Both the position numbers and the translations under genes were made by a program. From Acidimicrobiia bacterium (GTDB lineage: Bacteria; Actinomycetota; Acidimicrobiia; Acidimicrobiales; CATQHL01), in assembly GCA_021296415.1 (NCBI GenBank), contig JAGWAL010000013.1, forward strand, positions 12,158 through 74,116: a DNA stretch of 61,959 bases, written 5' to 3'. A model generated the notes under the pieces. It made no database searches. It was not told where the DNA came from and saw only the letters and a list, made by a program, of their open reading frames with translations. This document shows, one piece after another, positions 20,600 through 40,273 of the stretch. The first letter of the stretch is position 1; every line of letters begins with the position of its first letter.

Positions 20600-20710
20600 G
20601 CGCGTCCGGCACGATCCCCGTACCAATACCGTGTAGACAATCGAGTACATGCCCGGGAACGAGTCGCTCCGGTTGCGGCGCGGGTTGATGGATCGAGCCG
20701 GATCGGCACG

Positions 20711-23640: not shown

Positions 23641-24611
23641 TGCGCGCCGTGCTCCTCAGCGAGTTCGGCGCCCCCGTGCGCCTCGTCGAGGATCACCCCG
23701 ACCCCGCGGCCGACGGCGGAGAGGTCATCGACGTGATCGCCTGCGGTGTGTGCCACTCCGACCTGCACATCTCCGAAGGCCTCTTCCCCATCGCCCTGCC
23801 GCGGATACTCGGGCACGAGGTGACCGGCATGCACCCGCGGCTGGGCCCCGTGATGGTCTACGCGCCCTGGGGATGCGGACGCTGCGCCGACTGCGAGGCC
23901 TCCCTGGAGATGATCTGCGCCGACGCCGCCGAGGCCGGCATCTTCTCCGACGGCGGCTACGCCGAGCGGATGGCTGTGCGGGAGGCCCGCTACCTGGCGC
24001 CCCTCGGCGACCTCGACCCCGTCGCCGCGGCACCGCTGGCCTGCGGCGGGCTCACCGCCTACCGGGCCGTCGGGCACACGCTGGATCTGCTGCGACGCCG
24101 CGGCCCCGGGGCCCGGGCCACCGTGATCGGCGCCGGTGGGCTGGGGCAGTTCGCCATCCGCTACCTGCGGCTGCTCAGCGACGCCACCGTCGTGGCCGCC
24201 GACACCGCGGCGGCCAAGCGGGCCACCGCCTGCGAGATCGGCGCGGACGAGGCCGTCGATCCCGGCGACGGCGTGCCGCCGACCGACGTGGTGCTGGACT
24301 TCATCGGCGCGGACGTCACGCTGGCCCAGGCTGCGGGCGCCGTGCGCAAGCGCGGCCTGGTGGTCGTCATCGGGCTCTTCGGCGGCAGGATCCCGTGGGG
24401 TTTCGGCGCCTGGCCACACGAGGTGCAGTTCATGAACAGCGTGTGGGGCACCCGGGCGCAACTCGACGAGCTGCTTTCGCTGGCCGCCCGCGAGCCCTCG
24501 ATCATCCAGCCTGTGGAGACCCTGCCCCTCGAGCGGGCGGCCGAGGCGCACGAGCGGGTGCGCACCGGAGACCTGCGGGGGCGGCTGGTCCTGACGGTCC
24601 GCGGCCGCTGA
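23640..24611 (+). CDS. zinc-dependent alcohol dehydrogenase (MDR family)
   Basis: ORF 23637..24611 with GVCHSDLH, GHEVTG, the CGRCADC structural-Zn motif and GAGGLG. The ATG overlaps the livMG stop. Confidence 0.88.
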   Translation: MRAVLLSEFGAPVRLVEDHPDPAADGGEVIDVIACGVCHSDLHISEGLFPIALPRILGHEVTGMHPRLGPVMVYAPWGCGRCADCEASLEMICADAAEAGIFSDGGYAERMAVREARYLAPLGDLDPVAAAPLACGGLTAYRAVGHTLDLLRRRGPGARATVIGAGGLGQFAIRYLRLLSDATVVAADTAAAKRATACEIGADEAVDPGDGVPPTDVVLDFIGADVTLAQAAGAVRKRGLVVVIGLFGGRIPWGFGAWPHEVQFMNSVWGTRAQLDELLSLAAREPSIIQPVETLPLERAAEAHERVRTGDLRGRLVLTVRGR

Positions 24612-24626
24612 AGCGCCCGGCGATCG

Positions 24627-25886
24627 ATGGACCCCGCCAGCTCGGTGACCAGCAATCCGCTGGACGTGGCGGCGCCGAGCCTGTACCTGGACGGCATCCC
24701 GCACGACCGCTTCGCCGCCATGCGGGCCGCGCCCGGCCTCACCTGGCACCCGTACGACGAGGGCGGCTTCTGGGCCGTCACCCGCCACGGCGACGTGCGC
24801 GCCGTGTCCCGGAACCCGGCGATCTTCTCCTCCGGAATCGGCCACACCAACCTCTGGGATCTGGAGGCCGACGCCCTGGAGGCCCGCCGCTCGCTCATCG
24901 ACACCGACGCACCCACACACACCCGGCTCCGGCGGATCGTCAGCCGCCACTTCACGCCCCGCAGCACCGCGCGGTTCACTGCGGTGACGCGCGCCATCGC
25001 CGCCGAGCTGCTCGACGGCTTCGTGGCGTCCGGTGGTGGGGACTGGGTCAGAGCCGTGGCGGCGCCGCTGCCGATCCGGGTCATCATGCTGATCCTCGGG
25101 ATACCCGAGGCCGATGCCGACCACCTCGTCGAGTTGTCGGACCACCTCGTGGACGGGACCGGCGACCGACCCACGCTGCCGCCCGACGCCTTCGGCAACA
25201 CGACGCCACTGCGGCTGTTGCCGTTCGGGAGTGCCGCCAGCCACGCCCTCTTCGTCTACGGCGAGGAGTTGGGCGAGCGTCGCCGGGCCGCGCCGGCCGC
25301 AGACCTGGTGACCGAGCTGGTGCGGGCCGCCGACGGGGGCGGGCTCAGCCCGGCCGAATACCGCAACTTCTTCCACCTGCTCGTGTTCGCCGGCAACGAG
25401 ACCACGCGGACCGCGCTCGTACACGGGGCACTGGCGTTCGCCGAACATCCCGAGCAACTGAGGCTGCTTCGCCACCGTCCCGAACTCCTCGACGGGGCCA
25501 CCGAGGAGGTGCTGCGCTGGGCCACACCGGTCCTGCACATGCGCCGCACCGCCCGCCGCGACACCGCCCTGGCGGGCACGGCCGTCAGCGCCGGCGACAA
25601 GGTGGTGATGTGGTACGCCTCGGCCAATCGCGATCCGGAGGCGTTCGATGACCCGTTCCGCTTCGACGTGTCACGCTCGCCCAACGAGCACTTCGCCTTC
25701 GGGGGCGGCGGGCATCACTTCTGCCTCGGCGCCTCCCTGGCACGCATGGAGATCAGGGTGCTCCTGGAGGAACTCCTGAAGCGACGCATCGGCCTTCGTG
25801 CGGCCGGCGCGCCGCGGCGGATCGCCTCGAACTTCGTGCACGGCGTAGCGTCGGTGTCCATGCAACCGGTGGAGCCGGACCCGTGA
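24627..25886 (+). CDS. cytochrome P450 (copy 2)
   Basis: ORF 24627..25886 with FAGNETT, EEVLR and FGGGGHHFCLG. Confidence 0.92.
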   Translation: MDPASSVTSNPLDVAAPSLYLDGIPHDRFAAMRAAPGLTWHPYDEGGFWAVTRHGDVRAVSRNPAIFSSGIGHTNLWDLEADALEARRSLIDTDAPTHTRLRRIVSRHFTPRSTARFTAVTRAIAAELLDGFVASGGGDWVRAVAAPLPIRVIMLILGIPEADADHLVELSDHLVDGTGDRPTLPPDAFGNTTPLRLLPFGSAASHALFVYGEELGERRRAAPAADLVTELVRAADGGGLSPAEYRNFFHLLVFAGNETTRTALVHGALAFAEHPEQLRLLRHRPELLDGATEEVLRWATPVLHMRRTARRDTALAGTAVSAGDKVVMWYASANRDPEAFDDPFRFDVSRSPNEHFAFGGGGHHFCLGASLARMEIRVLLEELLKRRIGLRAAGAPRRIASNFVHGVASVSMQPVEPDP

Positions 25887-27049
25887 GCGCGCCGCTGGAG
25901 GGCATCCTCGTGGTCACGCTGGAGAACGCCGTGTCGGCGCCGTTCACGACCCGCCATCTGGCCGATCTGGGGGCCAGGGTGCTGAAGGTGGAGCGCCCGC
26001 CACTGGGCGATTTCGCCCGTCACTACGACAGCAGGCTGGCCGGCGAGTCCACTTACTTCGTCTGGGGCAACCGGGGCAAGGACAGCATCGCGCTCGACCT
26101 GCGCGATCCGGCGCAGCGGGAGCGGTTCGACGAGTTGGTTGCCGGAGCCGACGTGTTCGTCCAGAACCTCTCCCCCGGCGCCGCCCGCCGCGCCGGCGTG
26201 CTCGCCGAGCAGCTCGTGGCCCGCCATCCCCACCTGGTGGCCTGCGACATCTCGGGCTACGGCATCGACGGGCCGCGGGCCGACGACAAGGCCTACGACC
26301 TCGTCGTGCAGGCCGAGGCGGGCGCCGTGGCGCTCACCGGCGACCCCGATCGCATGAGCAAGGTGGGCTTCTCCGTCGCCGACATCTGCGCCGGGATGTA
26401 CGCCCTCAGCGCCATCCTGGCGGCGCTGCACCGCCGCTCCCGCACCGGCGAGGGGGCGGCGATCTCGCTGTCGATGCTGGAGTGCCTGGCCGAGTGGACG
26501 GCACCGCAGACCTACGCCTCGGTCGCCGACGGCGCTCCGCCCACCCGATCCGCCCGGCGACACTCGCTCATCGCCCCGTACGGGCTGTTCGAACTCGCCG
26601 ACGGCGCCGTGATCATGCTGGCGGTGCAGTCCAACGCCGAGTGGGTGGTGCTGGCGACCGACGTGATGGAGCGACCCGGGCTGGCGACCGATCCCCGCTT
26701 CGCCGAGAACGCCGACCGGGTCGTCAACGTGGAGGAGTTGGAGGCCGAACTGAGCGCCGCTCTCGCCGCCGAGCCGGCGCCGACGGTGCTGGAGAAGCTT
26801 CGCCGGGCGCGCATCGCCTTCGGCCAGGTGAACGGCCCGCTGGAGGTCGCCGACCACGAGCAACTCCGGGCGCGGGGCCGGTTCGCCGACGTGGACCTGC
26901 CGGGAGGCCACACGACGGTGCTCCGCCCACCGTTCAACATCAGCGACGGGGGCGAGCCGCGGAGCCGGGTTCCCGCCCTCGGCGAGCACGATCCCGCACT
27001 CGTGGACGAACTGGTGGCACGCGCCCGGCGCCGAGCCGGCGAGGCGTAG
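25883..27049 (+). CDS. family III CoA-transferase (CaiB/BaiF/racemase fold)
   Basis: ORF 25883..27049, ...LEGILVVTLENAVSAPF...LADLGARVLKVERP...NRGKDSIALDL... GTGA overlap with the P450 stop. Confidence 0.85.
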   Translation: MSAPLEGILVVTLENAVSAPFTTRHLADLGARVLKVERPPLGDFARHYDSRLAGESTYFVWGNRGKDSIALDLRDPAQRERFDELVAGADVFVQNLSPGAARRAGVLAEQLVARHPHLVACDISGYGIDGPRADDKAYDLVVQAEAGAVALTGDPDRMSKVGFSVADICAGMYALSAILAALHRRSRTGEGAAISLSMLECLAEWTAPQTYASVADGAPPTRSARRHSLIAPYGLFELADGAVIMLAVQSNAEWVVLATDVMERPGLATDPRFAENADRVVNVEELEAELSAALAAEPAPTVLEKLRRARIAFGQVNGPLEVADHEQLRARGRFADVDLPGGHTTVLRPPFNISDGGEPRSRVPALGEHDPALVDELVARARRRAGEA

Positions 27050-27051
27050 CG

Positions 27052-27759
27052 ATGCTGCAGATCGAGTCGCTCACCACCCGCTACGGGTCGATCGCCGCGC
27101 TGCGGACCGCCACGCTACGGGTCGGCGAGGGCGAGATCGTGGGGGTGATCGGCCCCAACGGCGCCGGCAAGACGACGCTGTTGAACTCCGTCGCCGGCCT
27201 CCTCAGCCCGGCCGCCGGGCGCGTCCTGCTGGACGGCAGGGACGTCACCGGAGCGGCGCCCGACCGGATGCTGCGGGCCGGCGTGGCCCTGGTCCCCGAG
27301 CACCGCCGGCTGTTCGCCGACCTGACGGTGCGCGAGAACCTGCTCGTGGCCGGGATCACCGCAACCGCCCGCCGGCGCGCCGAGCGCGTCGAGGAAATGG
27401 CCGAACTGTTCCCGGTGCTGGGCGACCGGCGGGAGGTGCCCGCCGGCTACCTCTCCGGAGGCGAGGCCCAGCAACTCGCCATCGCCCGCGCCCTCATGAG
27501 CGCTCCCCGGATACTGCTGATGGACGAGCCGTCTCTCGGGCTGGCCCCCACGCTCGTGGACCTGGTGTTCGACCTCATCGGCCGGTTGGCCGCCGCCGGG
27601 CAGACCCTGCTGGTGGTCGAACAGAACGCCCACCGCATGCTGGGCGCCTGCGACCGGGCCTACATCATGCGCTCCGGCGAGATCGCCACGGAGGGATCGG
27701 GCCGGGAGCTGCTGCAGCGCAAGGACCTGTTCGACACCTACCTCGGCCCCTCCGGCTGA
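27052..27759 (+). CDS. ABC transporter ATP-binding protein (LivF type)
   Basis: ATG 27052 in ORF 26482..27759. Contains GPNGAGKTT, LSGGEAQQLAIARAL and LLMDEPS. Starts 2 nt after the CoA-transferase stop. Confidence 0.88.
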   Translation: MLQIESLTTRYGSIAALRTATLRVGEGEIVGVIGPNGAGKTTLLNSVAGLLSPAAGRVLLDGRDVTGAAPDRMLRAGVALVPEHRRLFADLTVRENLLVAGITATARRRAERVEEMAELFPVLGDRREVPAGYLSGGEAQQLAIARALMSAPRILLMDEPSLGLAPTLVDLVFDLIGRLAAAGQTLLVVEQNAHRMLGACDRAYIMRSGEIATEGSGRELLQRKDLFDTYLGPSG

Positions 27760-27778: not shown

Positions 27779-29065
27779 TCAGAGGTACGGCAGGTACGTG
27801 TCGAGTTCCCAGTCGGTGACGTGGGCAGTGAACTGCGCCCACTCGGTGCGCTTGACGGCGGTGAACTGCGCCACCGTCTCGGCGCCGAAGGCCTCGACGA
27901 AGGTCTCGTCGGCCTCCAGTTCGTCGAGGGCCTCGGCCAGAGAGCCGGGCGCGTGCACCTCGCAGCTGACGTTCTCGAGACCGTCGAGTGTCTCCGGCGG
28001 CGGGCACTCCAGTTCGTCGGCGACCCCGAGGCGGCTTGCCGTCAGGATCGCGGCGGCGGCGATGTGCGGGCTGGCCGCCGGGTCGGCGAGGCGGTTCTCC
28101 AGGCGGGTGGACGAGCCGCGTTCGGGGTTCACCCGCACCGTCGTGCAGCGGTGGTCGTGCCCCCAGTTCTGCCAGTAGCCGCAGAGCTGTGCCGGGGCCA
28201 GGCGCTTGTAGGAGTTGACCGTGGGACAGCACAGCGCCGTCATCGGCCGCAGGTACGCCAGTTGCCCGGCGATGCACTGCTTGGCGAGCGTCGAGAGGCC
28301 GTCGGGAGCGGCGTGATCCACGAGGGCGAGGTCCCCCGAGTCGTCAACGAAGCTGAGGTTCACGTGCAGGCCGTTGCCGCCCCGGTCGGCGATCGGCTTT
28401 GGCAGGAAGGTCAGCAGGAGGTCCCGCTCCGCCGCAACCTCCCGCGCCATCGTCTTGAACAGGAACGCCTCGTCGGCGGCGGCGATGGCGTCGTCGTAGA
28501 CCAGCGTGAACTCGAACTGGCTCTCGTCGTACTCGGCGTTCACCGACTCCAGGGAGAACCCGCACGCCGCCGCCTGCGTCACGATGTCGCGGCAGACACC
28601 CGACGGGTCGTTGAAGTGCCCGGTGCCGTAGACGAAGGATCCGGGCGCGCCGTACGGCTTCCAGCCGCCGTCACCGTCGGGCCCCATGAGGTAGGCCTCG
28701 AACTCGTAGCCCACCTTGGGCGTGAACCCCCTGTCCTCCCAGGCGGCCACGGCGCGACGCAACACCTCCCGGGGCGCGAAGGGAATCGGTGCGCCCTCGA
28801 AGGTGAGGTCACCGACGACGACACCGACGCCCTCCTCCCAGCCGGGGCGCACGTCGTCGAGGCTCAGGCTGCACGTCAGGTCGGGCATGCCCTCCAGGAA
28901 ACCCGCCCCGGGCACGGGCCCCATGTAACGGTCGTAGTTGAGCGCGAAGGACGTGATGCAGTGCCGCGCCCCGCCGGCCGCCACCGCGGCGGGCAGGTAC
29001 TTGCCGCGCGGCAGGTTCAGATGATCGGGCCAGAGCACGCGGATCTGCTGGTACTCGGCACTCAC
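27779..29065 (-). CDS. glutamine synthetase-fold ligase (gamma-glutamyl-amine synthetase candidate)
   Basis: ORF 27779..29119. GTG at 29065 has AGGAGG 6 nt upstream. GS catalytic-domain motifs present: GGNGLHVNLSF, PTVNSYKRL and RLENRLADPAASPH. Confidence 0.85.
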   Translation of the reverse strand: MSAEYQQIRVLWPDHLNLPRGKYLPAAVAAGGARHCITSFALNYDRYMGPVPGAGFLEGMPDLTCSLSLDDVRPGWEEGVGVVVGDLTFEGAPIPFAPREVLRRAVAAWEDRGFTPKVGYEFEAYLMGPDGDGGWKPYGAPGSFVYGTGHFNDPSGVCRDIVTQAAACGFSLESVNAEYDESQFEFTLVYDDAIAAADEAFLFKTMAREVAAERDLLLTFLPKPIADRGGNGLHVNLSFVDDSGDLALVDHAAPDGLSTLAKQCIAGQLAYLRPMTALCCPTVNSYKRLAPAQLCGYWQNWGHDHRCTTVRVNPERGSSTRLENRLADPAASPHIAAAAILTASRLGVADELECPPPETLDGLENVSCEVHAPGSLAEALDELEADETFVEAFGAETVAQFTAVKRTEWAQFTAHVTDWELDTYLPYL

Positions 29066-29085
29066 GGCGCACCTCCTGTCTGTCT

Positions 29086-29107
29086 CGCAAGCCCCGGGGA
29101 GCTTGCG
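29086..29107. promoter_or_regulatory. inverted repeat CGCAAGC-N8-GCTTGCG in the ligase/MarR divergent spacer (candidate MarR operator)
   Basis: Read directly. Lies 21 nt upstream of the ligase start codon. Confidence 0.35.
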
Positions 29108-29257
29108 GCGTCGTACCACAGGCCACCCCCGGCGTCGAATCTGCCGGGGCGCGGCGTGCGGGCGCAGAGATTCGGGCCCGGTCCCGCGGCGGAGTCCCTA
29201 CGCTCGCCGCGTGCCGGTCCGCCGTCGGGCGGCGGGGGCTGGCGTATTGTGGCGACC

Positions 29258-29779
29258 ATGCCGCGGGCCTTCGCCGCCGGGGACGACGAACTCGTCGAGG
29301 CCGAGTGCCTCATCCGCGCCGAGCTCGGCGCCCTGGATCTGGACCTGCTGGCACTCGCCGCCGTGTCGAACATCTTCCGGGCCGCCACCGCGGTGCGGAA
29401 CCACATGGAGCGCGGCGTGCTCCACCAGTACGGACTCTCCTGGAGCGCCTTCGTGGTGCTGTTCGTGCTGCGCGTCTGGGGGGAGCAGGAGTCCGGGCAC
29501 CTCGCCGCCGAGGCCGGCATCACCGGCGGGACGCTCACCGGCGTGCTCAACACGCTGCAGCGCAAGGGGTACGCCGAGCGCTCCGTGCATCCCACCGACG
29601 GTCGCCGCATGCTCGTGCGGACCACCGAGTCGGGGCACCGCGTCGTCGACGAGATCATGCCCGCCTTCAACAAGCAGGAGGCGCTGGTCACCCGCGACCT
29701 CAGCGACACCGAGGCCACCCAACTGGCGGCGTACCTGCGGACGCTGCTGCGCACCGTTGCTGACCTGAACACATCCTGA
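29258..29779 (+). CDS. MarR-family transcriptional regulator
   Basis: ATG 29258 in ORF 27821..29779. Winged-helix region ...SGHLAAEAGITGGTLTGVLNTLQRKGYAERSVHPTDGRRMLV... Confidence 0.88.
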   Translation: MPRAFAAGDDELVEAECLIRAELGALDLDLLALAAVSNIFRAATAVRNHMERGVLHQYGLSWSAFVVLFVLRVWGEQESGHLAAEAGITGGTLTGVLNTLQRKGYAERSVHPTDGRRMLVRTTESGHRVVDEIMPAFNKQEALVTRDLSDTEATQLAAYLRTLLRTVADLNTS

Positions 29780-29883
29780 ATCCGGCCTCGACAACTCCCC
29801 CGAAAAACTGTTAGGGTCCAAACGATTCTACCCACGCGTGCCGGGCGGTGACGGCGCGCCGACCGCAGGGAACGAGGCGAGGT

Positions 29884-30762
29884 ATGGGCGAGATCGTCGG
29901 CGCAGGGCTCGTGTCGCACGTCCCCCCCATCGTCATGCCCGAGGCGGAGCGGCGGCTCCTCAACGACGGGGAGGATTTCAGCCTCTGCGCCGGCCTCGAG
30001 CGCCTGCGGGCCGAGCGCCTCGACGGCTTGCGACCCGATGTGATCGTGGTGTTCGACACGCACTGGTTCAGCACCTTCGAGCACGTGTGCAGCGCGCACG
30101 AACGCCGTCGCGGTCTGTTCACGTCCGACGAGCTGCCGCGGGGCATGCGGCAGATGCCCTACGACATCCCCGGCGATCCCGAGCTGGCCTTCGGGCTGGC
30201 GGCCCTGGCGGAGGCTCGGGACGACACCTGGGTGCTGGCCTGCGACGATCCCCACCTGCCGATCCACTACCCCACCGTCAACCTTCTGGGGTACTTGCAG
30301 GGCGACGAGGCCTGGATGTCGGTGAGCATCTGCCAGACCGCCACGGCGGGGGACTTCCTGCTGCTGGGCGAGTTGCTGGCGGCGGCGGTGGCCGATCTGG
30401 ACCGCCGGGCGGTCCTGCTGGCCTCGGGGGGCTTGAGCCACCGGTTCTGGCCGCTGCGGGAACTGCGCTCGCACGAATCCGCGGATCTGCGCAACATCAT
30501 CAGCCGCGAGGCACGGGCCGCTGACGAGAGTCTCCTCGAGCAACTGCGTGCCGGCGACCACGCCGCTGTGCTGGCGGGAGTGGACGGGTTCCGCCGTCAC
30601 GCGCCGGAGGGCTTCTTCGGCCACTACCTGATGATGGCGGGGGCGCTGGGCGGCGCGGCCTGCCGGGCACCCGGCGAGATGTTCTCCGCCTACGAATCGG
30701 CGGCGGGCACCGGCCAGGCGCACGTCTGGTTCGACCGTCCCGCCGGCGGCTGGAAGGCTTGA
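29884..30762 (+). CDS. class III (LigB-type) extradiol ring-cleavage dioxygenase, HpaD (homoprotocatechuate 2,3-dioxygenase)-like
   Basis: ATG 29884 in ORF 29848..30762. VSHVPP, IVVFDTHW, FTSDELPRGMRQMPYDIPGDPELA, LLASGGLSHRF and AAGTGQAHVWF parallel E. coli HpaD as I remember it. Confidence 0.8.
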   Translation: MGEIVGAGLVSHVPPIVMPEAERRLLNDGEDFSLCAGLERLRAERLDGLRPDVIVVFDTHWFSTFEHVCSAHERRRGLFTSDELPRGMRQMPYDIPGDPELAFGLAALAEARDDTWVLACDDPHLPIHYPTVNLLGYLQGDEAWMSVSICQTATAGDFLLLGELLAAAVADLDRRAVLLASGGLSHRFWPLRELRSHESADLRNIISREARAADESLLEQLRAGDHAAVLAGVDGFRRHAPEGFFGHYLMMAGALGGAACRAPGEMFSAYESAAGTGQAHVWFDRPAGGWKA

Positions 30763-30809
30763 GTTCCACCGCGCCGATCGGCCAGGATCATGATCCCGAG
30801 GAGGCTGCC

Positions 30810-31664
30810 ATGAGATTCGCCAACGTGTCCGGACGGGCCTGCCTGGTGCTGGACGGTCGGGCGGTGGACATCGCCGAGGCGTCGGGCGGCGCCCTGAGCT
30901 CGGACCCGATGATGACGGCCGACCTCGCCAATCATGCGGCGCTGCGGGCGCTGGCCGCCGACGTCGATCCTGCCTCCTGGCCCGCACTGCGGGAGGCCGA
31001 CCTGGGGCCGCCCGTTCCGCATCCGGGGAAGATCATCGCCCTCGCCCTCAACTATCGGACCCATGCGGAGGAGGCCGGTCTGGCGATCCCCACCGAGCCG
31101 CACGTCATGGCCAAGTTCCCCACCTGCATCTGCGGTCCCGGCGCCGACGTGCCGATCGGTGACCTGGAGATGGTCGACTACGAGGTGGAGTTGGTGCTGG
31201 CAGTGGGGCGGCGCTGCAAGGGGGTGGCCGCGCCTGATGCCTGGAGCCACATCTCGGGCCTCACCTGCGGCAACGACGTCAGCGATCGCAACGAGCAGTT
31301 CCGCCCGCCCGTGCGCCAGTTCTCCCTGGCCAAGAGCTACGACGCCTTCGGGCCCATCGGCCCGACCATGATCACGCCCGACGAGGTTCCGAACCGCGAC
31401 GACCTTGCACTCGGTTGCCGGGTGGACGGCGAGGTGCGCCAGCAGGCCCGCACCAGCGACTTCATCTTCGACGTGAGCTACCTGATGGCGTGGCTGTCCC
31501 GCTACGTCACACTCGAGGTCGGCGATCTCATCTTCACCGGTACGCCGGGCGGCGTGGGGGACTCCATGGATCCGCCCACGTACCTGCGCCACGGTCAGGT
31601 GGTGGAACTGGAGATCGAGGGCATCGGCACGCTGCGCAACCGGATCGTGGCCGGGGAGGGTTGA
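30810..31664 (+). CDS. fumarylacetoacetate hydrolase (FAH) family protein
   Basis: ATG 30810 (GAGGAGG upstream) in ORF 30759..31664, ...DYEVELVLAVGR...GLTCGNDVSDR...LEVGDLIFTGTPGGVG... Confidence 0.85.
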   Translation: MRFANVSGRACLVLDGRAVDIAEASGGALSSDPMMTADLANHAALRALAADVDPASWPALREADLGPPVPHPGKIIALALNYRTHAEEAGLAIPTEPHVMAKFPTCICGPGADVPIGDLEMVDYEVELVLAVGRRCKGVAAPDAWSHISGLTCGNDVSDRNEQFRPPVRQFSLAKSYDAFGPIGPTMITPDEVPNRDDLALGCRVDGEVRQQARTSDFIFDVSYLMAWLSRYVTLEVGDLIFTGTPGGVGDSMDPPTYLRHGQVVELEIEGIGTLRNRIVAGEG

Positions 31665-31667
31665 GCC

Positions 31668-32039
31668 GTGCGGGTCGTGGTCGGCGGTGACAGGAGTTCA
31701 ACCTACGGGGGCCTCTTCACCGGCCGCGTGGAGCTGGAGATGCTGCACGCCACCGCCGGCGACGACGAGCCCGACACCGCCCACGTGCACTTCAGCGACG
31801 GGGCGGTCACCAACTGGCACAGCCACCCCGGGGGCCAGCTGATCTACGTGGCGGCCGGGCGCGGCCGGGTCGGCACCGACGCCGACGGCGCCGTGCCGCT
31901 GGAGCCGGGCACGCTGGTGGTGGCTCCGCCGAACGAGCGCCACTGGCACGGCGCGGCTCCTGGCTGCGACTGCACGCTCCTGTGCGTCACGTGGGGCACG
32001 ACCTGCTGGACCGACGAGGCACCCGGCCTCGGCGACTGA
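31668..32039 (+). CDS. cupin-domain protein
   Basis: ORF 31668..32039 with cupin motifs NWHSHPGGQLIYVAAG and PPNERHWHGA. Confidence 0.75.
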   Translation: MRVVVGGDRSSTYGGLFTGRVELEMLHATAGDDEPDTAHVHFSDGAVTNWHSHPGGQLIYVAAGRGRVGTDADGAVPLEPGTLVVAPPNERHWHGAAPGCDCTLLCVTWGTTCWTDEAPGLGD

Positions 32040-32172
32040 CGCCGCAGACCGGAACCTGGTCTCGCGGTGGTCCGGGCAGCGCCGCCGGCGGCCTAGCAAT
32101 GGCCGCCTACAGCGCCCCCGACACCCCCGCCCTCGCGATCCTGTGGTTGCGGTGGAGGAAGGCCACGAACAC

Positions 32173-33582
32173 GTGAGTCCCGCGACCTCCGGCGTACCCG
32201 AAGTGGCCGTCATCGGCTACGCGCTGGCCAACCTGCTGGGCCGGGCCGGCATAGAGACCCGCGTCCACGAGCGCTGCACCGAGCCGTACCCGCTGCCGCG
32301 TGCCTGCCACCTCGATGCCGAGATCATGCGCATCTTCCAGAACATCGGGCTGGGCGACGAGATGGCTGCGCTCGTCGAACCCAGCAGGGGCATGCTATTC
32401 GTGGACGCCGACGGTCGGCCGCTGTTCGACTACGAGGACTTCGTCCGCGACCCCATCCTGGGTTGGCACGAGGACTACGTCTTCATCCAGCCCGAACTGG
32501 ACGCCGTGCTGCGCGCCGGCGTGGACCGCTTCGACTGCGTGGACGTGCGGCTCGGCGCCGAGGTCGCCGACTGGCGGGAGGTGCCCGCCCGGTGGGTGGT
32601 GGCCTGCGACGGCGCCGCCGGCACGTCCCGGCCAAGGGCCGGCATCGACTTCGTGGACCTCGGCTACGACCAGCGGTGGCTGGTCGTGGACGTGATGCTC
32701 TCGCGGCCCGTCGAGCTGCCCGGCATCATCTGTCAGGTCTGCGATCCGAAGCGGCCCGCCACGTTCGTGCCGTCGGCCCGCGACCACCGCCGCTGGGAGT
32801 TCCGCCTGGCCCCCGGTGAGTCCGACGAGCAGGCCGCCGATCCGGAGAACGTGTGGCAGCTCCTGGCCCCCTGGCTGCAGCCGGGCGACGGGGAACTCGT
32901 GCGGGCCGCGGTTTACGACTTCCACGCCACCGTCGCCGAGACCTGGCGCCACGGGCGGCTGCTGCTGGCGGGCGACGCGGCCCATCAGATGCCGCCGTTC
33001 ATGGGTCAGGGCATGTGCTCGGGCATCCGCGACGCCGCCAACCTGGCCTGGAAGCTGCAGGCCGTGCTGCACAACGGCGCCCCGGAGGGGCTGCTGGACA
33101 GCTACGAGGCCGAGCGCCGCCCGCACGTCGAGCGCTGCATCGAACTGTCCATCGAGGCGGGCCGGCTGCTGGACGAGCCGGCCTTCCCCGAACCCGACAG
33201 CGACGACGGGGAGCGCTGGTCGCGCCTCCCCCCGCTCTCCGGACTTTTCCAGCAGAGCGCCGCGCCCGCACCCTTCCCCATCGGCCACCAGGCTCGCCAG
33301 CCGACCGTGGTGCTGGAGGGGGAGCGCCTCCTGCTGGACGACCTGGCCGGACCCGGCTGGTACCTCGTGAGCGACGGCCCGGCCGGCGGCGCCGGGCTGG
33401 CACGGGTGGTGGATGCGACACGGCTGGGCGACCCCGACGGCTGGCTGGCGAGGCTCCTCGGCGGCTCGGCCGCGGTCCTGATCCGCCCCGACCGCTACGT
33501 CTACGGCACCGCGAGCACGACGGCCGACGTGGCGGCCCTGCTGGCGGATGCCCGCCGCAGCGTCGGCCTGGAGAGCGCCTGA
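32173..33582 (+). CDS. FAD-dependent aromatic hydroxylase, MhpA/PheA-TfdB class, with a truncated dinucleotide-binding motif
   Basis: ORF 32143..33582 (GTG 32173 is a plausible start). VACDGAAGTSR and GDAAHQMPPFMGQGMCSGIRDAANLAWKL are intact. The N-terminal VAVIGYALANLLGRAG lacks the GxGxxG core. Confidence 0.75.
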   Translation: MSPATSGVPEVAVIGYALANLLGRAGIETRVHERCTEPYPLPRACHLDAEIMRIFQNIGLGDEMAALVEPSRGMLFVDADGRPLFDYEDFVRDPILGWHEDYVFIQPELDAVLRAGVDRFDCVDVRLGAEVADWREVPARWVVACDGAAGTSRPRAGIDFVDLGYDQRWLVVDVMLSRPVELPGIICQVCDPKRPATFVPSARDHRRWEFRLAPGESDEQAADPENVWQLLAPWLQPGDGELVRAAVYDFHATVAETWRHGRLLLAGDAAHQMPPFMGQGMCSGIRDAANLAWKLQAVLHNGAPEGLLDSYEAERRPHVERCIELSIEAGRLLDEPAFPEPDSDDGERWSRLPPLSGLFQQSAAPAPFPIGHQARQPTVVLEGERLLLDDLAGPGWYLVSDGPAGGAGLARVVDATRLGDPDGWLARLLGGSAAVLIRPDRYVYGTASTTADVAALLADARRSVGLESA

Positions 33583-33599
33583 GGACCGGTCGCGGCGGC

Positions 33600-34868
33600 T
33601 CAGCCCGGGACGATGCGCAGCGGCAGCCGTTTCAGGCCGTTGATGAAGTTGGAGCGCACCCGGGTGACCTCGCCGCACACCTCCAGGTGCAGGTTCCTGC
33701 GCAGCAACTCCTCGAGGAACACGCGCACCTCCAGGCGGGCCAGCCACGATCCGAGACAGAAGTGCGGGCCTCCCCCGCCGAAGGTGACGTGACGGTTGGG
33801 GTCGCGGCCCAGGTCCAGCGTGTGGGGGTCGTCGAAGACCTCCTCGTCGTAGTTGGCCGAGAGGTACCAGGTCACGACCTTGTCCCCCGCGGCCACGGGG
33901 ACGCCGGCGACCTCGGTGTCCATCACCGCCGTGCGGCGGAAGTGGATCTGGGGCGAGGCATAGCGCAGGACCTCCTCGACCGCCGTCGTCAGCAGGTCGG
34001 GTTCGGCACGCAGGCGTGCCAGCTCGCCGGGGCGCTCGGCCAGGGCAAGGGCACCGTGATTGAGGGCGTGGCGGGTGGTCTCGTTGCCGGCGATGACCAG
34101 CAGCAGGAAGAGCGTGTTGAAGTTCTGCCGCGACAGCTCACCGGCGGCCACGAGCAGCGACACCACGTCGTCGGCCGGGTGGCGGCGCTTGCCGTCGGCG
34201 AGTTGCCGGGCGTAGGCGAAGACCCTCGTCGAAGTGGGGCTGCGGAACGGCAGGAGCCGGTACGGGTCGGTGTCCTCCCTGTCGAAGACCACCTCGGAGT
34301 AGTCCGGGTCGGCGTGGTAGATGATCCTGTCGGCCCACTCGAACAGGCTGCCGGTGTCCTCGTCGGGCACGCCCAGGATGCGGCTGATCATGAGGATCGG
34401 CAGCGGGCGGGCCACGGCGCCGACGAAGTCCACCTCGGCTCCGGCGCCGTTGCCCCCGGCATCTGCGAGCGCCTCGTCGAGGATCTGCGCCATGAGCTCC
34501 CGGGCGTCGCCCGTCCACCGCTCGATGCTGCGGCGGGTGAAGTTGCGCGACACCATCCGGCGCAGCCGGGTGTGCTCGGGCGGATCCGTCTCCAGCATGG
34601 TGCGCCGGGCCTCGCGGGCCTCGGGGTCGCGCTCCAACTCCTCCAACTCGGTGCCGCCGACCTGCGACGAGAACGTTTCGTGGTCGCGGTGGACCGCCAC
34701 GAGGTCGGCCCAGCGGGTCACCGCCCAGAAGCCGGCGTTGCCGTCCGGCTCGGGGTGCCAGGCCACGGGCATCTCGCGCCGCAGGCGAGCGAACGCCTCG
34801 TGAGGAATGGCTCGCTCGTAGACGTCGTGGCTGCAGATGTCGACCGGCGAGAGCGGGCCTCTTGTCAC
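33600..34868 (-). CDS. cytochrome P450 (copy 3)
   Basis: ORF 33600..35159. GTG 34868 overlaps the stop of the upstream gene (GTGA). Contains IAGNETT, EEVLR, FGGGGPHFCLG and RSNFINGLKRLPL. Confidence 0.9.
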   Translation of the reverse strand: MTRGPLSPVDICSHDVYERAIPHEAFARLRREMPVAWHPEPDGNAGFWAVTRWADLVAVHRDHETFSSQVGGTELEELERDPEAREARRTMLETDPPEHTRLRRMVSRNFTRRSIERWTGDARELMAQILDEALADAGGNGAGAEVDFVGAVARPLPILMISRILGVPDEDTGSLFEWADRIIYHADPDYSEVVFDREDTDPYRLLPFRSPTSTRVFAYARQLADGKRRHPADDVVSLLVAAGELSRQNFNTLFLLLVIAGNETTRHALNHGALALAERPGELARLRAEPDLLTTAVEEVLRYASPQIHFRRTAVMDTEVAGVPVAAGDKVVTWYLSANYDEEVFDDPHTLDLGRDPNRHVTFGGGGPHFCLGSWLARLEVRVFLEELLRRNLHLEVCGEVTRVRSNFINGLKRLPLRIVPG

Positions 34869-35560
34869 CGGCCTGCCACGTCGTCGAGGAACCAATCCAC
34901 TAGCCGCTGCGTGCGACGGGACGCCGAGGCCTCCAGGCCGGCGGTCTCGGCCGCCATCACACCAGGGTCGACGCCGTGGGCCCGGAGTTCCTCGTCCCCG
35001 ATCACGAGCCATTCCGCCAGCAGCTCGCTGTCCACCTCGGGGTGGAACTGCAATCCCAGGCTCCGGCCCTCGCGAAAGGCCTGCGGGCCGTTGCGATTGC
35101 GGGCGATCTCGGTGGCACCCTCGGGGACCGTGAAGCGGTCGTAGTGCCACTGGAACCACGGTCCGGGTGAGAGGCCGTCAGGCTCGTCGGTGTCGATTGT
35201 GAGCCAGCCGAACTCGGGGACCGGCGCCCGTGACACCGTGCCGCCCAGGGCTGCGGACAACACCTGGCCACCGAAGCAGAGGCCGAGGACGGGCCGCCCG
35301 GAGTCGTGGGCACGCCGGACGAAGTCGAGTTCACGGTGGATCCAGCTTCCGATCCTGGCCTCGTCGTACACCGACCACACCGCTCCCAGCACCACCACCA
35401 GGTCGTAGTCGCCGGGATCGGGGAACGCACGGTCGCTGACGGGGTTCTGCACGTCGCCGACCACCCGGAAGGGCTCCAGTTCGACGCCCCGGCCGGCGAG
35501 AGCCTCGCCGACGAGCGCCGCGTGCCCAGTCGGGTCGTGCTCGACCGCCAACCCCTTCAC
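34865..35560 (-). CDS. class I glutamine amidotransferase-fold protein (gamma-glutamyl hydrolase candidate)
   Basis: ORF 34865..35743, likely GTG 35560. Nucleophile elbow PVLGLCFGGQ and the His-Glu motif LQFHPE are present. Confidence 0.8.
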   Translation of the reverse strand: MKGLAVEHDPTGHAALVGEALAGRGVELEPFRVVGDVQNPVSDRAFPDPGDYDLVVVLGAVWSVYDEARIGSWIHRELDFVRRAHDSGRPVLGLCFGGQVLSAALGGTVSRAPVPEFGWLTIDTDEPDGLSPGPWFQWHYDRFTVPEGATEIARNRNGPQAFREGRSLGLQFHPEVDSELLAEWLVIGDEELRAHGVDPGVMAAETAGLEASASRRTQRLVDWFLDDVAGR

Positions 35561-35591: not shown

Positions 35592-35749
35592 CCGGTCGGG
35601 AGCCGGGTGCCGTTCGCTCCTTCGGCGCAGGCGCAAGGCGTCGCAAAGCGGCTCTTTAGACCGGTCGGGAGCCGGGTGCCGCAGTGTCCGGTCGGGGGCC
35701 GGGGTGCCGTTCGCTCCTTCGGCGCGGGCGCAAGGCGTCGCAAAGCGGC
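35592..35749. repeat. two copies of a roughly 61-bp unit plus a 20-bp partial copy, in the spacer between priA and the amidotransferase-P450 operon
   Basis: Full copies at 35592-35652 and 35688-35749: ccggtcggg(a/g)gccgg(g)gtgccgttcgctccttcggcgc(a/g)ggcgcaaggcgtcgcaaagcggc. Partial copy ccggtcgggagccgggtgcc at 35661-35680. Confidence 0.85.
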
Positions 35750-35824: not shown

Positions 35825-37743
35825 TCAGAACCTCAGCGGGTCGATGGCCAGGCGGAGGCGGCCGGGGGGGCGCTCGACGTTGGCGAGGGCGTCGAGGAGG
35901 AACCTGCGGTCGGCGGCGCGGACGACCCAGCGGTTCTCTCCCACCGGGGAGATGTCGAGGCCGAGCGGCCGACCCAGGCGCTCCACGAAGGCGTCGGCGG
36001 CCGCTCCGGCGATCTCGGCGAGCGTCTCGAACGGGGGGAAGCCGAGCTGTTGGCGCAGAGCCCGGTCGTGGCTGCTCAGCAGGCCCGGGTCGGCGGTGCC
36101 GGCGGCCTGCAGGACCGGGTGGCCGGGCTGGCGGGTCTGCACCAGGATCCGGCCTCCGCCGCTGCGGGGCCCGGCGAGGCGGGCGGCGCGGACCAGGAGC
36201 GCCATGGCCTGCTCGTTGGCCCGGTAGCGAGGCGCCGAGAGTTCCTGATCGAAGTCCAGGAACGCCACCAGGTCGGCCTTGGGGACTCGGTGCAGCGCGG
36301 CTTCGGTTCCGATCACCACGCGGGAGTCGCCGCCCCCGGTCTCCGGGCCTGAACGGGCGGATCCGCTCACCTCGGCAACCCGCTCGCCGAGCAGCACCTC
36401 CAGCTCCTCGCGGAGCCTGGCCACGCCGGGACGCAGGATGCGCAGGCGCGTGGCTCCGCAGCCCGAGCAGACCCGCGGACGATGCTCGCCGCAGCGCGGG
36501 CAATCCAGACCGCCGGTGCTTGCGCCCGCGGCGGTTCCCTCTCCCACCGCGGCTCCGCAGGAGTCGCAGACCACCAGGTCGCCGCATCCCGCGCAAGCCA
36601 GAAGGCGCGCCCGCCCCTTGCGGTTTAGGACGCAGACGGCCCTGTCGCGGGACCGGAGGCGGGCCACGAGCGTCTCGGTCAGCAGGCCGTGGCGGCCCAC
36701 CTCGGGGTCGCGCTGGTCCACGACCTCCAGGCTCGGCCATCCCTCCCGCTCGACGGCGCGCCGCGGTGCCAGAGGCCCGTCGGACGCCAGTTCCTGGGCC
36801 TCCAGGGTGGGAATCGGCGAGACCAGCACACACGGGACGCCCGCTCGGCGGGCCCGCTCGACGGCCACCTCGCGGGCGCTCCAGGTCGGTGCGTCCTCGG
36901 CGACCAGTGCCTGAGCACCACGACCGCGGCGAGCCGGGGAGCAGGGCCGAAGACCCCGGCACGGGTCCCGACCACCACGCCACCGGCAGCGGCCTGCGCC
37001 CAGCCGTCGGGCAGCAGAGCCGCGGCGGCACCGCGACGGCGCACCCAATCGGCCAGGCGCCCCGCGTCGGCGACGTGCGGGACGACCAGCAGAACATCGC
37101 CCCGCGTCAGGGCCGCCATCAGCAACGGACCCCTGTCGCCGGCGGGAGGAACGCGCACCACCGACACGGACCTCTCGAACGCGCTCTCCCAGATCGCTTC
37201 GGAGCCTGTACCGGCCGGGCGGGCTGCCGGCGGTGCCGACGGCGCGTCGTGCCGAGGGACGCACTCGACGACTCGCGGCGGCGAGGCGGTACCGAAGAAC
37301 GTGGCGCGGCGCCCGGCCCAGCGCCATGCCGCCCAACAAGCCAGGTCGAGTGTCTCCGCCGACGGCCCGACGCCGACCAGCTTCGAGAGCGGTCGCAAGT
37401 CCAGGGGAGCCGGCTCGCGCCCGTCGCCCTCGTCGGGCGGCGGGTCACCCCCGAGATCGAGTTCCAAACGGAGATCTGCGGGCTGCTCGAGAGCGGCCTC
37501 GAGGATCGCGTCGGGCTGCGAACCCGGAGCCAGGGAGGGTTCGATGTTCCTTGCCGGGGCGGGTCGCCCGGCGGGCTCGGGGTCGCAGGCCGTCACCCAG
37601 GCGCCAACGCGGCGGCCCTGCAACGCCACACGCACCATCGTCCCGACGGCCAGCCTCGCCGCTCGACCGTCATCGTGCCAGGCGGAGGGCACCTCGTAGT
37701 CGAACTCGCGGTCGACGGCCGCCACGTCGGTGCGCACCCGCAC
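35825..37743 (-). pseudogene. priA: primosomal protein N' (PriA) with an interrupted reading frame (apparent 1-nt frameshift near 36913)
   Basis: The N-terminal part is ORF 36679..37743 (VRVRTDVAAVDREFDYEVP...LAAVVVL). The C-terminal part is ORF 35825..37339 (...ALVAEDAPTWSAREVAVE..., the Cys-rich CAGCG..CDSCG..CPRCG..CSGCG, ...QTRQPGHP...). Total span is 1919 nt, not divisible by 3. Confidence 0.7.
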
Positions 37744-39148: not shown

Positions 39149-40273
39149 TCAGGCGTTCTGCTGCGGCGGGTGGTCGCCGGTGAGACCCTGCTCGCGCCAG
39201 AGGGCGAGTTTCTCGAGGACAGGGAAGTCGTTGAAGCTGAAGAGGCAGGCATCGTCGGACGTCGAGGCGTTGGCGTGCTCGTGCCATGTCCACGAGGGCA
39301 CGCAGAAGATGTCCATCTCGACCCAGTCGAAGCGGTGCCCGCCGATGACCGAGTGGCCCGATCCCCTGGCAACCTGGTAGACGACGTTGCCGGTGTGCCG
39401 GTGGGCCCGCGTCGCCTCGCCGGGACGGAGCAGTTGCATGGCCGCACCCATCGTGGCCATGACGTGGCCGCCGGTGTGAGGGTTCACATAGCGCAGCATC
39501 ACGCCGTCGTGGGGACTCTCGACACCGGCCGAGGCGGCCCGCTGCAACGACTCGTAAGTGGCGTCGAAGGGATAGCGCAGCAGCGGCGAGTAGGGCCGGT
39601 CCCAGGAGTAGCCGGTCGGCAGCAACGCGGGACCGCCGAACGCGCCTTCGGAGTCGTTGGGTGGATGGTCGACGCTCTGGTGGTGGTCGGGATGCACCTC
39701 GTACCAGTTGGCTTCGAGGGCGTTGGCGAGCGGGATGTCCAGGCCGTCCTGCCAGAGGCAGGTCTCACCCTCCTCGTCCACGCCGTGGTCGTGCCAGGTG
39801 CCACCGGGCGTGAGCACGAAGTCTCCGGGGTGGAGGTCGACGCGGTGGCCGTCCACGACCGTGTAACCGCCCGAGCCCTCCATGATGAAGCGCAGGGCCG
39901 AGGCGCCGTGGCGGTGCGCCGAGGCACGCTCGCCGGGCCGCATGACCTGGATGCCACTGAAGAGCAGTCCGCACACGGCGCTGATCTCTCTGCGCCTCGG
40001 GTTGCGCAGGTAGACGACCCTGCGACCCGCGTCCTCGGGCGCCACGAGGTCGAGTGAGCGCAGCGCCTGGATGCGCAGCTCGGACCACCGCCACAGAGTC
40101 GGCGCCGAGAACGCATGCGGCTCCCAGGGCTCGATCTCGTTCGCGACGGTCCACAGAGCGCCGGTGTCGAGGCGGTCCAGCTCGCCGTAGTACTGCTGCA
40201 GATCTTCGCTGTCGGCAACCCGGGCGCGACCCAACTCCCGGTCGCGCGCCTCGCCGGCGGTTCGGATGCTCAT
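39149..40273 (-). CDS. gentisate 1,2-dioxygenase-like bicupin dioxygenase
   Basis: ORF 39149..40273, ...IQVMRPGERASAHRHGASALRFIMEGSGGYTVVDGHRV...GDFVLTPGGTWHDHG..., plus a second cupin with HRHTGNVVYQV. Confidence 0.8.
   Translation of the reverse strand: MSIRTAGEARDRELGRARVADSEDLQQYYGELDRLDTGALWTVANEIEPWEPHAFSAPTLWRWSELRIQALRSLDLVAPEDAGRRVVYLRNPRRREISAVCGLLFSGIQVMRPGERASAHRHGASALRFIMEGSGGYTVVDGHRVDLHPGDFVLTPGGTWHDHGVDEEGETCLWQDGLDIPLANALEANWYEVHPDHHQSVDHPPNDSEGAFGGPALLPTGYSWDRPYSPLLRYPFDATYESLQRAASAGVESPHDGVMLRYVNPHTGGHVMATMGAAMQLLRPGEATRAHRHTGNVVYQVARGSGHSVIGGHRFDWVEMDIFCVPSWTWHEHANASTSDDACLFSFNDFPVLEKLALWREQGLTGDHPPQQNA

Follow-up and report, generated by a model that had tools for sequence, protein, structure and literature searches.

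What is the role of a gene of the glutamine synthetase (GS) fold that lies among genes for the cleavage of an aromatic ring? The question is raised by a 61,959-nucleotide stretch of contig JAGWAL010000013.1 (assembly GCA_021296415.1) from an Acidimicrobiia bacterium, which in its whole length is called the window below. The amines known to be broken down by way of gamma-glutamylation are polyamines, ethanolamine, isopropylamine, cyclic amines and anilines. For positions 27779-35560 of the window, the original prediction proposed a cluster in which a GS-like ligase, a class I glutamine amidotransferase (GATase)-fold hydrolase and a P450 are coupled to ring-cleavage genes of the homoprotocatechuate (Hpa) type. 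Our analysis makes a functional coupling probable between a gamma-glutamylation/P450 module and a meta-cleavage route of the homoprotocatechuate type, with an aromatic amine as the substrate. We infer that the window holds a dispersed MarR-type regulon for aromatic alkylamine catabolism, made up of the regions at 13.0-19.0 kb and 27.8-35.6 kb and possibly also that at 43.7-46.7 kb.

Because the G+C content of the window is about 72%, genes were called by third-position GC. All eight genes claimed for 27779-35560 were present at their predicted coordinates and had the expected folds, as judged by Pfam and NCBIfam matches. The sequence motifs quoted for the ligase (NSYKRL and GNGLHVNLSF) were found in its translation as PTVNSYKRL and GGNGLHVNLSF, and both of those given for the GATase (LCFGGQ and QFHPE) were likewise found. 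The GTGA overlap of the GATase and P450 genes was also as described: at 34868-34865 on the - strand, ...GGC CGG TGA ends the GATase frame and GTG ACA AGA starts that of the P450. Independent gene calls in a syntenic relative, locus L001, have the identical 4-bp overlap. The nearest relatives of the window proteins are found in metagenome-assembled genomes of Acidimicrobiales/Acidimicrobiia, with identities of 84-92% for the ligase.

The ligase gene (27779-29065, - strand) encodes a protein with a Gln-synt_C match of 272 bits, and proteins of this kind are labeled 'glutamine synthetase' in the sources. It scores under every NCBIfam GS cut-off, including those for GlnA (TIGR00653; 177.7 bits against 429, with only residues 159-425 aligned), type III GS (234 against 470) and gamma-glutamylputrescine synthetase (213 against 650). 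The closest solved structure is a glutamate-methylamine ligase (9qur, 173 bits), followed by GS-I-alpha enzymes at about 165 bits; NpaA1 (8wwu) and PA5508 gave 114 and 102 bits. In an alignment to Escherichia coli GlnA, the residues for metal, ATP and glutamate are retained (E129, E131, E212, E220, H269, R321, R339, R344, E357 and R359). The ammonium site and flap are changed in the same alignment (D50P, S53G, Y179V, E327L, N264G and H271N), the D50 column resting on a low-similarity N-terminal alignment; Y179 and E327 are also replaced in PuuA and IpuC. The adenylylation residue Tyr397 is Leu, and Pfam detected no GS N-terminal domain. In sequence, the catalytic core is intact and the amine site is remodeled and hydrophobic.

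A neighbor-joining tree of 11 sequences, a small set that has E. coli GlnA as outgroup and is without TdnQ, GlnA2-4 and GS-I-alpha enzymes, placed the ligase with its Novosphingobium and Ruegeria homologs in a distinct clade, sister to IpuC/PuuA and far from GlnA. The phylogenetic check proposed with the original prediction therefore came out on the side of the amine ligases, and not of the housekeeping enzyme. Identities are 33% to the IpuC encoded by plasmid pTC1 and 29% to PuuA, and the family to which the ligase belongs (about 427 amino acids) extends, with identities of 51-61%, through Acidimicrobiia, Nitriliruptoria, Vicinamibacterales, Chloroflexota and Deinococcales. We take the protein to be a predicted gamma-glutamyl organic-amine ligase and not a glutamine synthetase. 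That an ordinary ammonium-assimilating enzyme merely happens to lie beside catabolic genes is hardly credible: it would account for the GS catalytic domain and the label, but not for the GlnA score, the replaced ammonium-site residues, the missing adenylylation Tyr and N-terminal domain, or the clade shared with amine ligases.

The window proteins were compared by tblastn with 87 fetched loci, numbered L001 onwards, and the shares of partner genes were taken within 10 kb of the ligase in 51 species-level loci that had enough flank. A P450 accompanies the ligase in 96% of these loci, a GATase or Peptidase_C26 hydrolase in 86%, a LigB-type extradiol dioxygenase in 84% and a MarR-family regulator in 71%. 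An HpaE-like aldehyde dehydrogenase (ALDH) and an MppR-like protein of the acetoacetate decarboxylase superfamily (ADC) are each found in 69%, and an HpaG-like protein of the FAH family in 65%. The predicted trio of ligase, P450 and hydrolase is borne out by these figures, as is its link to the ring-cleavage set. The relatives that carry the cluster include Acidimicrobiia, Nitriliruptoria, Vicinamibacteria, Chloroflexota and Deinococcota. The P450 gene directly adjoins that of the ligase in 38 of 61 loci (62%). In the commonest layout, MarR, ADC, LigB, ALDH and FAH1 all point leftward, followed by the ligase pointing to the right, the P450 to the left, and the C26 hydrolase and an APC permease to the right. 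Microthrix (L017) and L072 have the whole set contiguous, including the block equivalent to 27779-35560 and a gene for a pyridoxal phosphate (PLP)-dependent decarboxylase. In 16% of loci, LigB has as its neighbor a PLP decarboxylase akin to those of aromatic amino acids; none is present in the window, and several relatives carry one within the cluster. That these genes occur together in at least five phyla, and in shuffled order, points to selection on the gene combination.

Separate plasmid searches identified clusters in cultured organisms. Novosphingobium sp. EMRT-2 carries MarR, LigB, P450-ligase-ALDH, ADC and FAH-ALDH-ferredoxin, and Streptomyces canus and Embleya carry the same set. Plasmid pSLUN1 of Streptomyces lunaelactis has the ligase, LigB, FAH, ADC, two ALDHs, a PuuD-family hydrolase, a PLP decarboxylase and an APC permease. 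In Ruegeria sp. TM1040, a GntR/GATase/P450/ligase module lies amid phenylacetate genes of the paaABCD type with no ring-cleavage set. The Streptomycetaceae plasmids and linear replicons (L093/L095, pSLUN1; L096, Embleya; L097, S. canus) have LigB, ALDH, FAH, ADC and MarR orthologs with a more divergent ligase, of 36-39% identity. They are in effect natural 'knock-out' variants, because one is without a P450 and another without a hydrolase.

When the conserved partners were mapped onto the window, they were found in a catabolic island of about 22.5 kb with housekeeping genes on both sides. On the left are pheS, rplT, infC, hisG, fmt, def and a methyltransferase gene, ending at 13024; on the right are priA and metK and, further out, coaBC. 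The cluster originally drawn at 27779-35560 is real but too narrow, as the most conserved partners lie at 13021-19028. These are the HpaE-like ALDH (13021-14499, +), P450A (15828-17096, -), whose lineage is the P450 most often found with the ligase, the MppR-type ADC protein (17228-18034, -) and FAH1, an isomerase/decarboxylase of the HpaG/HpcE type (18180-19028, +). A flavoprotein of the acyl-CoA dehydrogenase (ACAD) fold (14516-15718, +) lies between the first two. The second part of the island has the ligase divergent from the MarR gene (29258-29779, +), which is followed by the LigB gene (29884-30762, +).

The two parts are connected by a putative regulatory element. An AT-rich 12-mer, TTTGGWCCCTAA, has two exact matches in the window, one at 18051 in the divergent ADC/FAH1 intergenic region (TTTGGTCCCTAA, 18051-18062) and one at 29811 upstream of LigB (TTTGGACCCTAA on the minus strand, 29811-29822), and shuffled sequence gave 0 exact matches. 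The motif was spotted by eye and derived from these two sites, which makes the count of exact matches in the window circular; independent support must therefore come from its recurrence at orthologous sites elsewhere. Searching the 1.4 Mb of loci with at most 1 mismatch gave 27 matches in 22 loci, and no identified gene contains any of them. Of the 27, about 20 are at orthologous intergenic sites, either upstream of LigB or in the ADC/FAH1 gap, including those of the distant L003, L007, Microthrix and L072. The motif in the ADC/FAH1 gap is at the orthologous position in L007, L013, L017 and L072, and that upstream of LigB is kept in L001, L003, L007, L008-L014, L017, L072 and L080. In L003, one copy precedes a hydrolase-ligase-P450 operon. 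The shared operator-like motif appears to link the partners at 13021-19028 to the LigB operon, and adds to the support for the predicted connection of the ligase trio with ring cleavage. A weaker palindrome, TTTGGATACAAA, is located at 19112, upstream of a gene for a substrate-binding protein. A palindrome search of the ligase/MarR, GATase and LigB promoters found only GC-rich hairpins, at 29086-29107 and 29205-29234.

These data bear on the possibility that the island holds two independent modules, with the ligase, P450 and GATase acting on a non-aromatic amine (a branched alkylamine or ethanolamine, as in ipu- or Puu-like pathways) and LigB, ALDH, FAH and ADC acting on (hydroxy)phenylacetate. 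The P450s resemble omega-hydroxylases of methyl-branched lipids and steroids, and genes for a Liv-type ABC transporter, a zinc-dependent alcohol dehydrogenase, a CoA-transferase and ACAD-like proteins lie between the two sets. Some loci have the ligase and P450 with no LigB, and the non-specific matches of the APC permeases include an ethanolamine permease. The operator-like motif is absent from the ligase and GATase promoters in the window. However, two unconnected modules would not be expected to occur together in at least five phyla with shuffled orders, nor would the motif be expected before the hydrolase-ligase-P450 operon of L003. Moreover, ALDH, ADC and FAH accompany the ligase and P450 even where LigB is out of range. 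We therefore regard two separate modules as improbable.

The ring-cleavage enzymes resemble those of the Hpa pathway. For LigB, a class III extradiol dioxygenase, the best NCBIfam match is HpaD_Fe (116.6 bits, cut-off 316) and the best match in the PDB is 3,4-dihydroxyphenylacetate 2,3-dioxygenase 8iq8, in alignment with which the first-strand His, the His residues of DTHW and LSHRF and the P-E-G Glu are matched. We take these to be the metal and catalytic set, as in LigAB. The names given to LigB orthologs by the Prokaryotic Genome Annotation Pipeline were uninformative ('3,4-dihydroxyphenylacetate 2,3-dioxygenase' in S. canus, 'catechol 1,2-dioxygenase' in Novosphingobium and S. lunaelactis); they add nothing because the hidden Markov model (HMM) scores are alike, at a sub-threshold 127-130 bits. 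The ALDH matches HpaE best (462.6 bits, cut-off 638) and is 69.5% identical to the ALDH of L036 that is sited between LigB and FAH1. FAH1 has as matches HpcE in the PDB (1gtt, 213.9 bits) and the C-terminal HpaG model of NCBIfam (203.3 bits, cut-off 276), and is 69-74% identical to its Novosphingobium and Streptomyces orthologs. The best matches of the ADC protein are MppR (4jm3, 195 bits) and then 4zbo/6eej (Sbi00515; 166 bits); its score of 230.7 bits with the NCBIfam MppR model is under the cut-off of 380. Aldol reactions between pyruvate and aldehydes are catalyzed by MppR-type proteins, for which a role as aldolases of meta pathways has been proposed (PMC7820114). The best match of the MarR protein is HpaR, below threshold. 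Since the window cluster contains no HpaBC hydroxylase, HpaF isomerase, HpaH hydratase or HpaI aldolase, it would function in the manner of the Hpa pathway but does not belong to it.

The same enzymes argue on another possibility, that of a biosynthetic cluster in which the P450, a LigB/DODA-type dioxygenase and the decarboxylase make a pigment like betalamic acid or muscaflavin, or another DOPA-derived metabolite, to which the ligase adds, or on which it carries, a glutamyl group. In plant betalain synthesis a P450 (CYP76AD) is indeed paired with a LigB-family DOPA dioxygenase, and PLP decarboxylases are present in some loci. But the conserved partners (HpaE-like ALDH, HpcE-like FAH, aldolase-type ADC and MarR/HpaR-like repressor) are of catabolic types, and LigB is nearest to ring-fission enzymes of degradative pathways. 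Furthermore, no genes for non-ribosomal peptide or polyketide synthases, tailoring or export are conserved with the cluster. A biosynthetic role is accordingly very improbable.

If the cluster is catabolic, the part played by its P450 becomes the central issue. P450A falls in the CYP125/124/268 clan. Its identity is 59% with the P450 next to the ligase in L006, 49-50% with the corresponding P450s of Novosphingobium and Ruegeria, and 48-49% with those of S. canus and Embleya. The P450 of the original prediction (P450C, 33600-34868, -; haem-binding loop FGGGGPHFCLG) is a paralog of P450A with 47% identity, is translationally coupled to the GATase, and occurs only together with the accessory genes described below, in about 22% of loci. 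Altogether, the window has four CYP125/124-clan paralogs within 27 kb (15828-17096, 24627-25886, 33600-34868 and 41295-42563), with mutual identities of 41-48%. No ferredoxin or reductase gene adjoins any of the four; in this the window differs from the S. canus and Novosphingobium clusters, where a gene of one or the other kind is present.

The stand-alone class I GATase-fold protein of the window (34865-35560, -) has the Cys-His-Glu motifs, and its best PDB match is 7d54 (209.8 bits), a Mycobacterium smegmatis glutaminase crystallized with Gln. The hydrolase in 55% of loci is of the PuuD-type Peptidase_C26 family, and Embleya and S. lunaelactis have an ALDH-C26 operon resembling puuC-puuD. 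Seven loci, each flanked by 5.6-10 kb of sequence to either side of the ligase, yielded no GATase or C26 hydrolase even by HMM search, and the S. canus cluster has none either; L066, L073 and S. canus are complete clusters without any hydrolase. In the intergenic region between priA and the GATase gene there is a 97-bp tandem duplication (35592-35749) with 55-nt copies 93% identical plus a perfect repeat of 21 nt. L010, L011, L012 and L080 have a single copy of a 23-nt core of this unit at the same position, and the duplication may represent a duplicated promoter or leader element.

Two orders of events can be derived from this gene content. The one we put forward, tentatively and at somewhat less than even confidence, runs from glutamylation through N-dealkylation by the P450 and arylacetate to meta-cleavage. 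The ligase would couple the amine to glutamate at its gamma-carboxyl group, at the expense of ATP. A CYP125-clan P450 (P450A, with P450C as its local paralog) would then oxidize the gamma-glutamyl amide at the nitrogen-bound carbon, and the resulting carbinolamide would collapse to an arylacetaldehyde and L-glutamine. The aldehyde would be oxidized to the arylacetate (4-hydroxyphenylacetate or 3,4-dihydroxyphenylacetate), with hydroxylation to the catechol where needed. LigB would open the ring, and the HpaE-like ALDH, FAH1 and the MppR-like protein would process the product, the last as a hydratase-aldolase in place of HpaH/HpaI to give pyruvate and succinic semialdehyde. The GATase would regenerate glutamate from glutamine, or would act as a safety valve on the gamma-glutamyl amide, like AtdA2 in aniline degradation. 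Thus the co-location of a hydrolase agrees with the original prediction, but its assignment there to a final deglutamylation step may not hold, as the enzyme may instead be a glutaminase or a safety valve.

Both the regiochemistry of the P450 and a substrate of the tyramine, dopamine or phenylethylamine class are predictions from these genes. Neither of two attempts to name the substrate more closely was informative: permease HMMs matched non-specifically (ethanolamine permease, branched-chain amino acid and TyrP models, at 45-113 bits), and the closest matches for the PLP decarboxylases were the gut-bacterial decarboxylase 4obu, DesA and DOPA decarboxylases, at low scores.

Several findings favor N-dealkylation. 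The ligase and P450 form the minimal conserved unit, L006 having only these two; the seven loci and S. canus lack a hydrolase; the Ruegeria module lies among paa genes; glutamine is bound by the nearest relative of the GATase with a solved structure; and in aniline degradation, too, it is at the oxygenase step that the C-N bond is lost. It is possible, though we hold it with less confidence than the order of steps as such, that the ligase and P450 are a self-sufficient two-enzyme 'amine-to-glutamine' module, in which the nitrogen would be captured on glutamate and the nitrogen-bound carbon hydroxylated, so that the aldehyde and L-glutamine are released.

The alternative order, which follows the original prediction, keeps the glutamyl group on to the end. 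Glutamylated tyramine or dopamine would be hydroxylated on the ring by the P450 to gamma-glutamyl-dopamine, which LigB would cleave with the glutamyl group still attached. ALDH, FAH1 and the MppR-like aldolase would yield pyruvate and gamma-glutamyl-4-aminobutanal, then gamma-glutamyl-4-aminobutyrate, and hydrolysis by the GATase or a PuuD-like enzyme would come last. The glutamyl group would here keep the free amine from cyclizing onto the ring-fission product or an o-quinone. By our own bookkeeping, an Hpa-type route acting on gamma-glutamyl-dopamine would leave gamma-glutamyl-4-aminobutanal, an intermediate of the Puu pathway, which fits the frequency of PuuD-type C26 hydrolases and the ALDH-C26 operons noted above. 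The absence of a P450 from pSLUN1 fits a catecholamine that needs no hydroxylation, and the PLP decarboxylases found beside LigB also count on this side. The ipu-type cluster of pTC1 has its GATase/C26 gene immediately before the P450, like the window, and the P450 of the ipu pathway is said to leave the amide intact. Finally, characterized P450s of the CYP124/125/142 clan are known to hydroxylate the chain termini of elongated substrates, and not mid-chain carbons. On the other hand, complete clusters without a hydrolase, as in L066, L073 and S. canus, would trap glutamate; the L006 locus and the Ruegeria module without ring cleavage are left unexplained; and the enzymes of the lower pathway are most like those acting on the free acid. 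We therefore think it rather doubtful that the ring is hydroxylated and opened in the glutamylated form. ALDH subtype did not tell the two orders apart, as both Novosphingobium ALDHs match many models with similar sub-threshold scores.

It should be noted that a number of points weigh against N-dealkylation coupled to an Hpa-type route, in addition to the clan's preference for chain termini and the lack of the operator-like motif at the ligase and GATase promoters. The window ligase adjoins no P450; all of the Hpa-type matches (HpaD, HpaE, HpaG and HpaR) are under their equivalog cut-offs; and pSLUN1, with no P450, is hard to square with C-N cleavage that depends on one. Minimal clusters have no separate ring hydroxylase, and there N-dealkylation would work only with a catecholamine or with genes located elsewhere. 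Amine oxidases or transaminases, moreover, would give the same deamination without the cost in ATP. On balance N-dealkylation is slightly favored over ring hydroxylation, its close rival, and the genomic evidence leaves the choice undecided.

Comparison with characterized systems shows which parts of the cluster are familiar. The aniline and 1-naphthylamine systems AtdA1-A5, TdnQTA1A2B and NpaA1-A5 resemble the window in having a GS-like ligase, an adjoining class I GATase-like hydrolase, an oxygenase and a catechol whose ring is cleaved. In these systems, the oxygenase converts the gamma-glutamyl amide to a catechol, with the GATase-like enzyme serving as no more than a safety valve (PMC11335346, PMC4539516); thus the C-N bond is lost at the oxygenase step. 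Their oxygenase is a two-component Rieske dioxygenase, whereas the window cluster has a P450, and no Rieske or reductase domains were found in the called cluster genes of the window or of the syntenic L001. They act on an arylamine, in contrast to the presumed alkyl (sp3) amine and LigB/Hpa-type cleavage of the window, and the window ligase, with its low score against NpaA1, belongs to a clade apart from theirs. The ipu system of Pseudomonas sp. KIE171 and the ipu-like cluster on pTC1 of Paenarthrobacter aurescens have the same trio (ligase IpuC, P450 IpuD and hydrolase IpuF). However, the window ligase is in a separate clade from IpuC, P450 identity to pTC1 is about 31%, the window has no dedicated ferredoxin or reductase gene beside its P450, and ipu clusters have no set for aromatic ring cleavage.

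The Hpa/Hpc pathways of E. coli and Pseudomonas share with the window the sequence of enzyme types from extradiol dioxygenase through semialdehyde dehydrogenase to FAH-fold isomerase/decarboxylase, and a MarR/HpaR-type repressor. The window differs in having an MppR-like ADC-superfamily protein where Hpa has the HpaF/HpaH/HpaI steps, in lacking HpaBC, and in being fed by a glutamylation/P450 module instead of the amine oxidase TynA and FeaB. The Puu pathway and the GlnA2/3/4 systems of actinobacteria, which proceed through gamma-glutamyl-polyamines and -ethanolamide, likewise begin with ATP-dependent gamma-glutamylation and have an ALDH and a PuuD- or GATase-type hydrolase. The window GATase is nearest to the stand-alone mycobacterial GATase (PMC6529630), and the cluster departs from Puu in the low identity of its ligase to PuuA, in the absence of a PuuB-type oxidase and in the attached P450 and ring-fission set.

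The remaining genes of the original cluster are of a different standing. GATase-P450C together with FAH2, a cupin and a flavoprotein had been taken as part of the core; the genes are real, but all of them except the GATase gene belong to a lineage-specific accessory block. FAH2 (30810-31664, +) is 34% identical to FAH1 and is present in 24% of relatives, always with the small cupin (31668-32039, +) and the FAD monooxygenase (32143-33582, +). The MhpA-like fold predicted for the last was confirmed (PRK06183.1-3, 450.6 against a cut-off of 390), but the local copy looks inactivated: a 15-nt in-frame deletion at about 32220 removes GPVGA of the dinucleotide-binding motif GYGPVG, which is kept in all 11 of the 11 orthologs with a readable N-terminus. 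With its GxGxxG motif deleted, the protein is probably unable to bind FAD, unless the deletion is an assembly artifact, and is probably inactive in this genome. The neighboring priA gene (35825-37743, -) is split over two frames that overlap at about 36829-36913, residues 5-328 and 287-653 of L001 PriA matching different frames. The split reflects either a frameshift or an assembly indel in what is normally an important gene, so assembly indels are possible in the window.

Between the two halves of the conserved cluster lies an inserted block (19132-27759, +), assigned by Pfam, with synteny in L001 and L002 and, in part, in L003 and L007. It encodes a Liv-type ABC transporter (substrate-binding protein, 19132-20547; permease, 20711-21598; permease-ATPase, about 21742-23640; ATPase, 27052-27759), the zinc-dependent alcohol dehydrogenase (23637-24611), P450B (24627-25886) and a family III CoA-transferase (25883-27049). 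A similar P450/CoA-transferase/ACAD/GntR block follows the ligase in L003. The flavoprotein at 14516-15718, with weak Pfam ACAD domains, has as its best PDB matches 5z8t/5gj7 and then nitrososynthases, is 60% identical to an ACAD-like gene product within clusters of the L056 type, and is possibly a group D monooxygenase. It was considered as a hydroxylase of the HpaB/C2 type and rejected, as no 4-hydroxyphenylacetate hydroxylase components were among its PDB neighbors.

A trio of genes at 43670-46701 tentatively belongs to the pathway. Its alpha/beta-hydrolase (43670-44464, +) is 52% identical to one upstream of the L003 ligase, and its ACAD-fold flavoprotein (44480-45658, +) is 68% identical to that at 6727-7938 of L056. 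The third protein (45655-46701, +), NicX-like and of unassigned function, is 70% identical to that at 16312-17373 of L087, and its L002 homolog is flagged PF26233 NicX. The trio is inside the ligase cluster in L038, L046, L056 and L087; loci of the Candidatus Poriferisocius type have it there. Between metK and coaBC, at 39149-43673, there is an operon of P450D (41295-42563), a Nit6803-like nitrilase (40270-41298) and a bicupin like gentisate 1,2-dioxygenase (39149-40273), with a divergent PaaX-like regulator (42843-43673); it suggests a separate arylacetonitrile or arylacetate route. A 689-amino-acid fusion of PGA_cap (capsule synthesis, CapA-like) and VanY D-Ala-D-Ala carboxypeptidase domains is encoded at 46830-48899 (-). 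An Rfam scan of the whole window found no riboswitch or leader RNA.

Full-text literature searches found no cluster of ligase, P450 and Hpa-type genes, and no bacterial catabolism of gamma-glutamyl-arylethylamines (tyramine, dopamine or phenylethylamine). What appears to be new here is the joining of gamma-glutamylation and a P450 to LigB/Hpa-type ring fission. The proposal is testable in cultured organisms, as Novosphingobium sp. EMRT-2, S. canus and Embleya have orthologous clusters and Ruegeria sp. TM1040 has the ligase-P450-GATase module. If confirmed, it would provide functions for a distinct clade of GS-like enzymes and a subgroup of CYP125-clan P450s, and a catabolic role for the MppR-like acetoacetate decarboxylase family. 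The two-enzyme module, if it exists, would take the place of amine oxidases, dehydrogenases and transaminases as a widespread alternative, present in at least five phyla. Amine nitrogen would then pass straight into central nitrogen metabolism, and arylethylamines would be channeled into phenylacetyl-CoA (paa) catabolism or into a novel Hpa-like route with an MppR-type aldolase. The lineages that carry the cluster include Acidimicrobiia from peat, soil, sludge and sponges, Vicinamibacteria and Chloroflexota. Because it is conserved in such abundant and mostly uncultured lineages, biogenic aromatic amines may find a major sink in the cluster, and their nitrogen a route.

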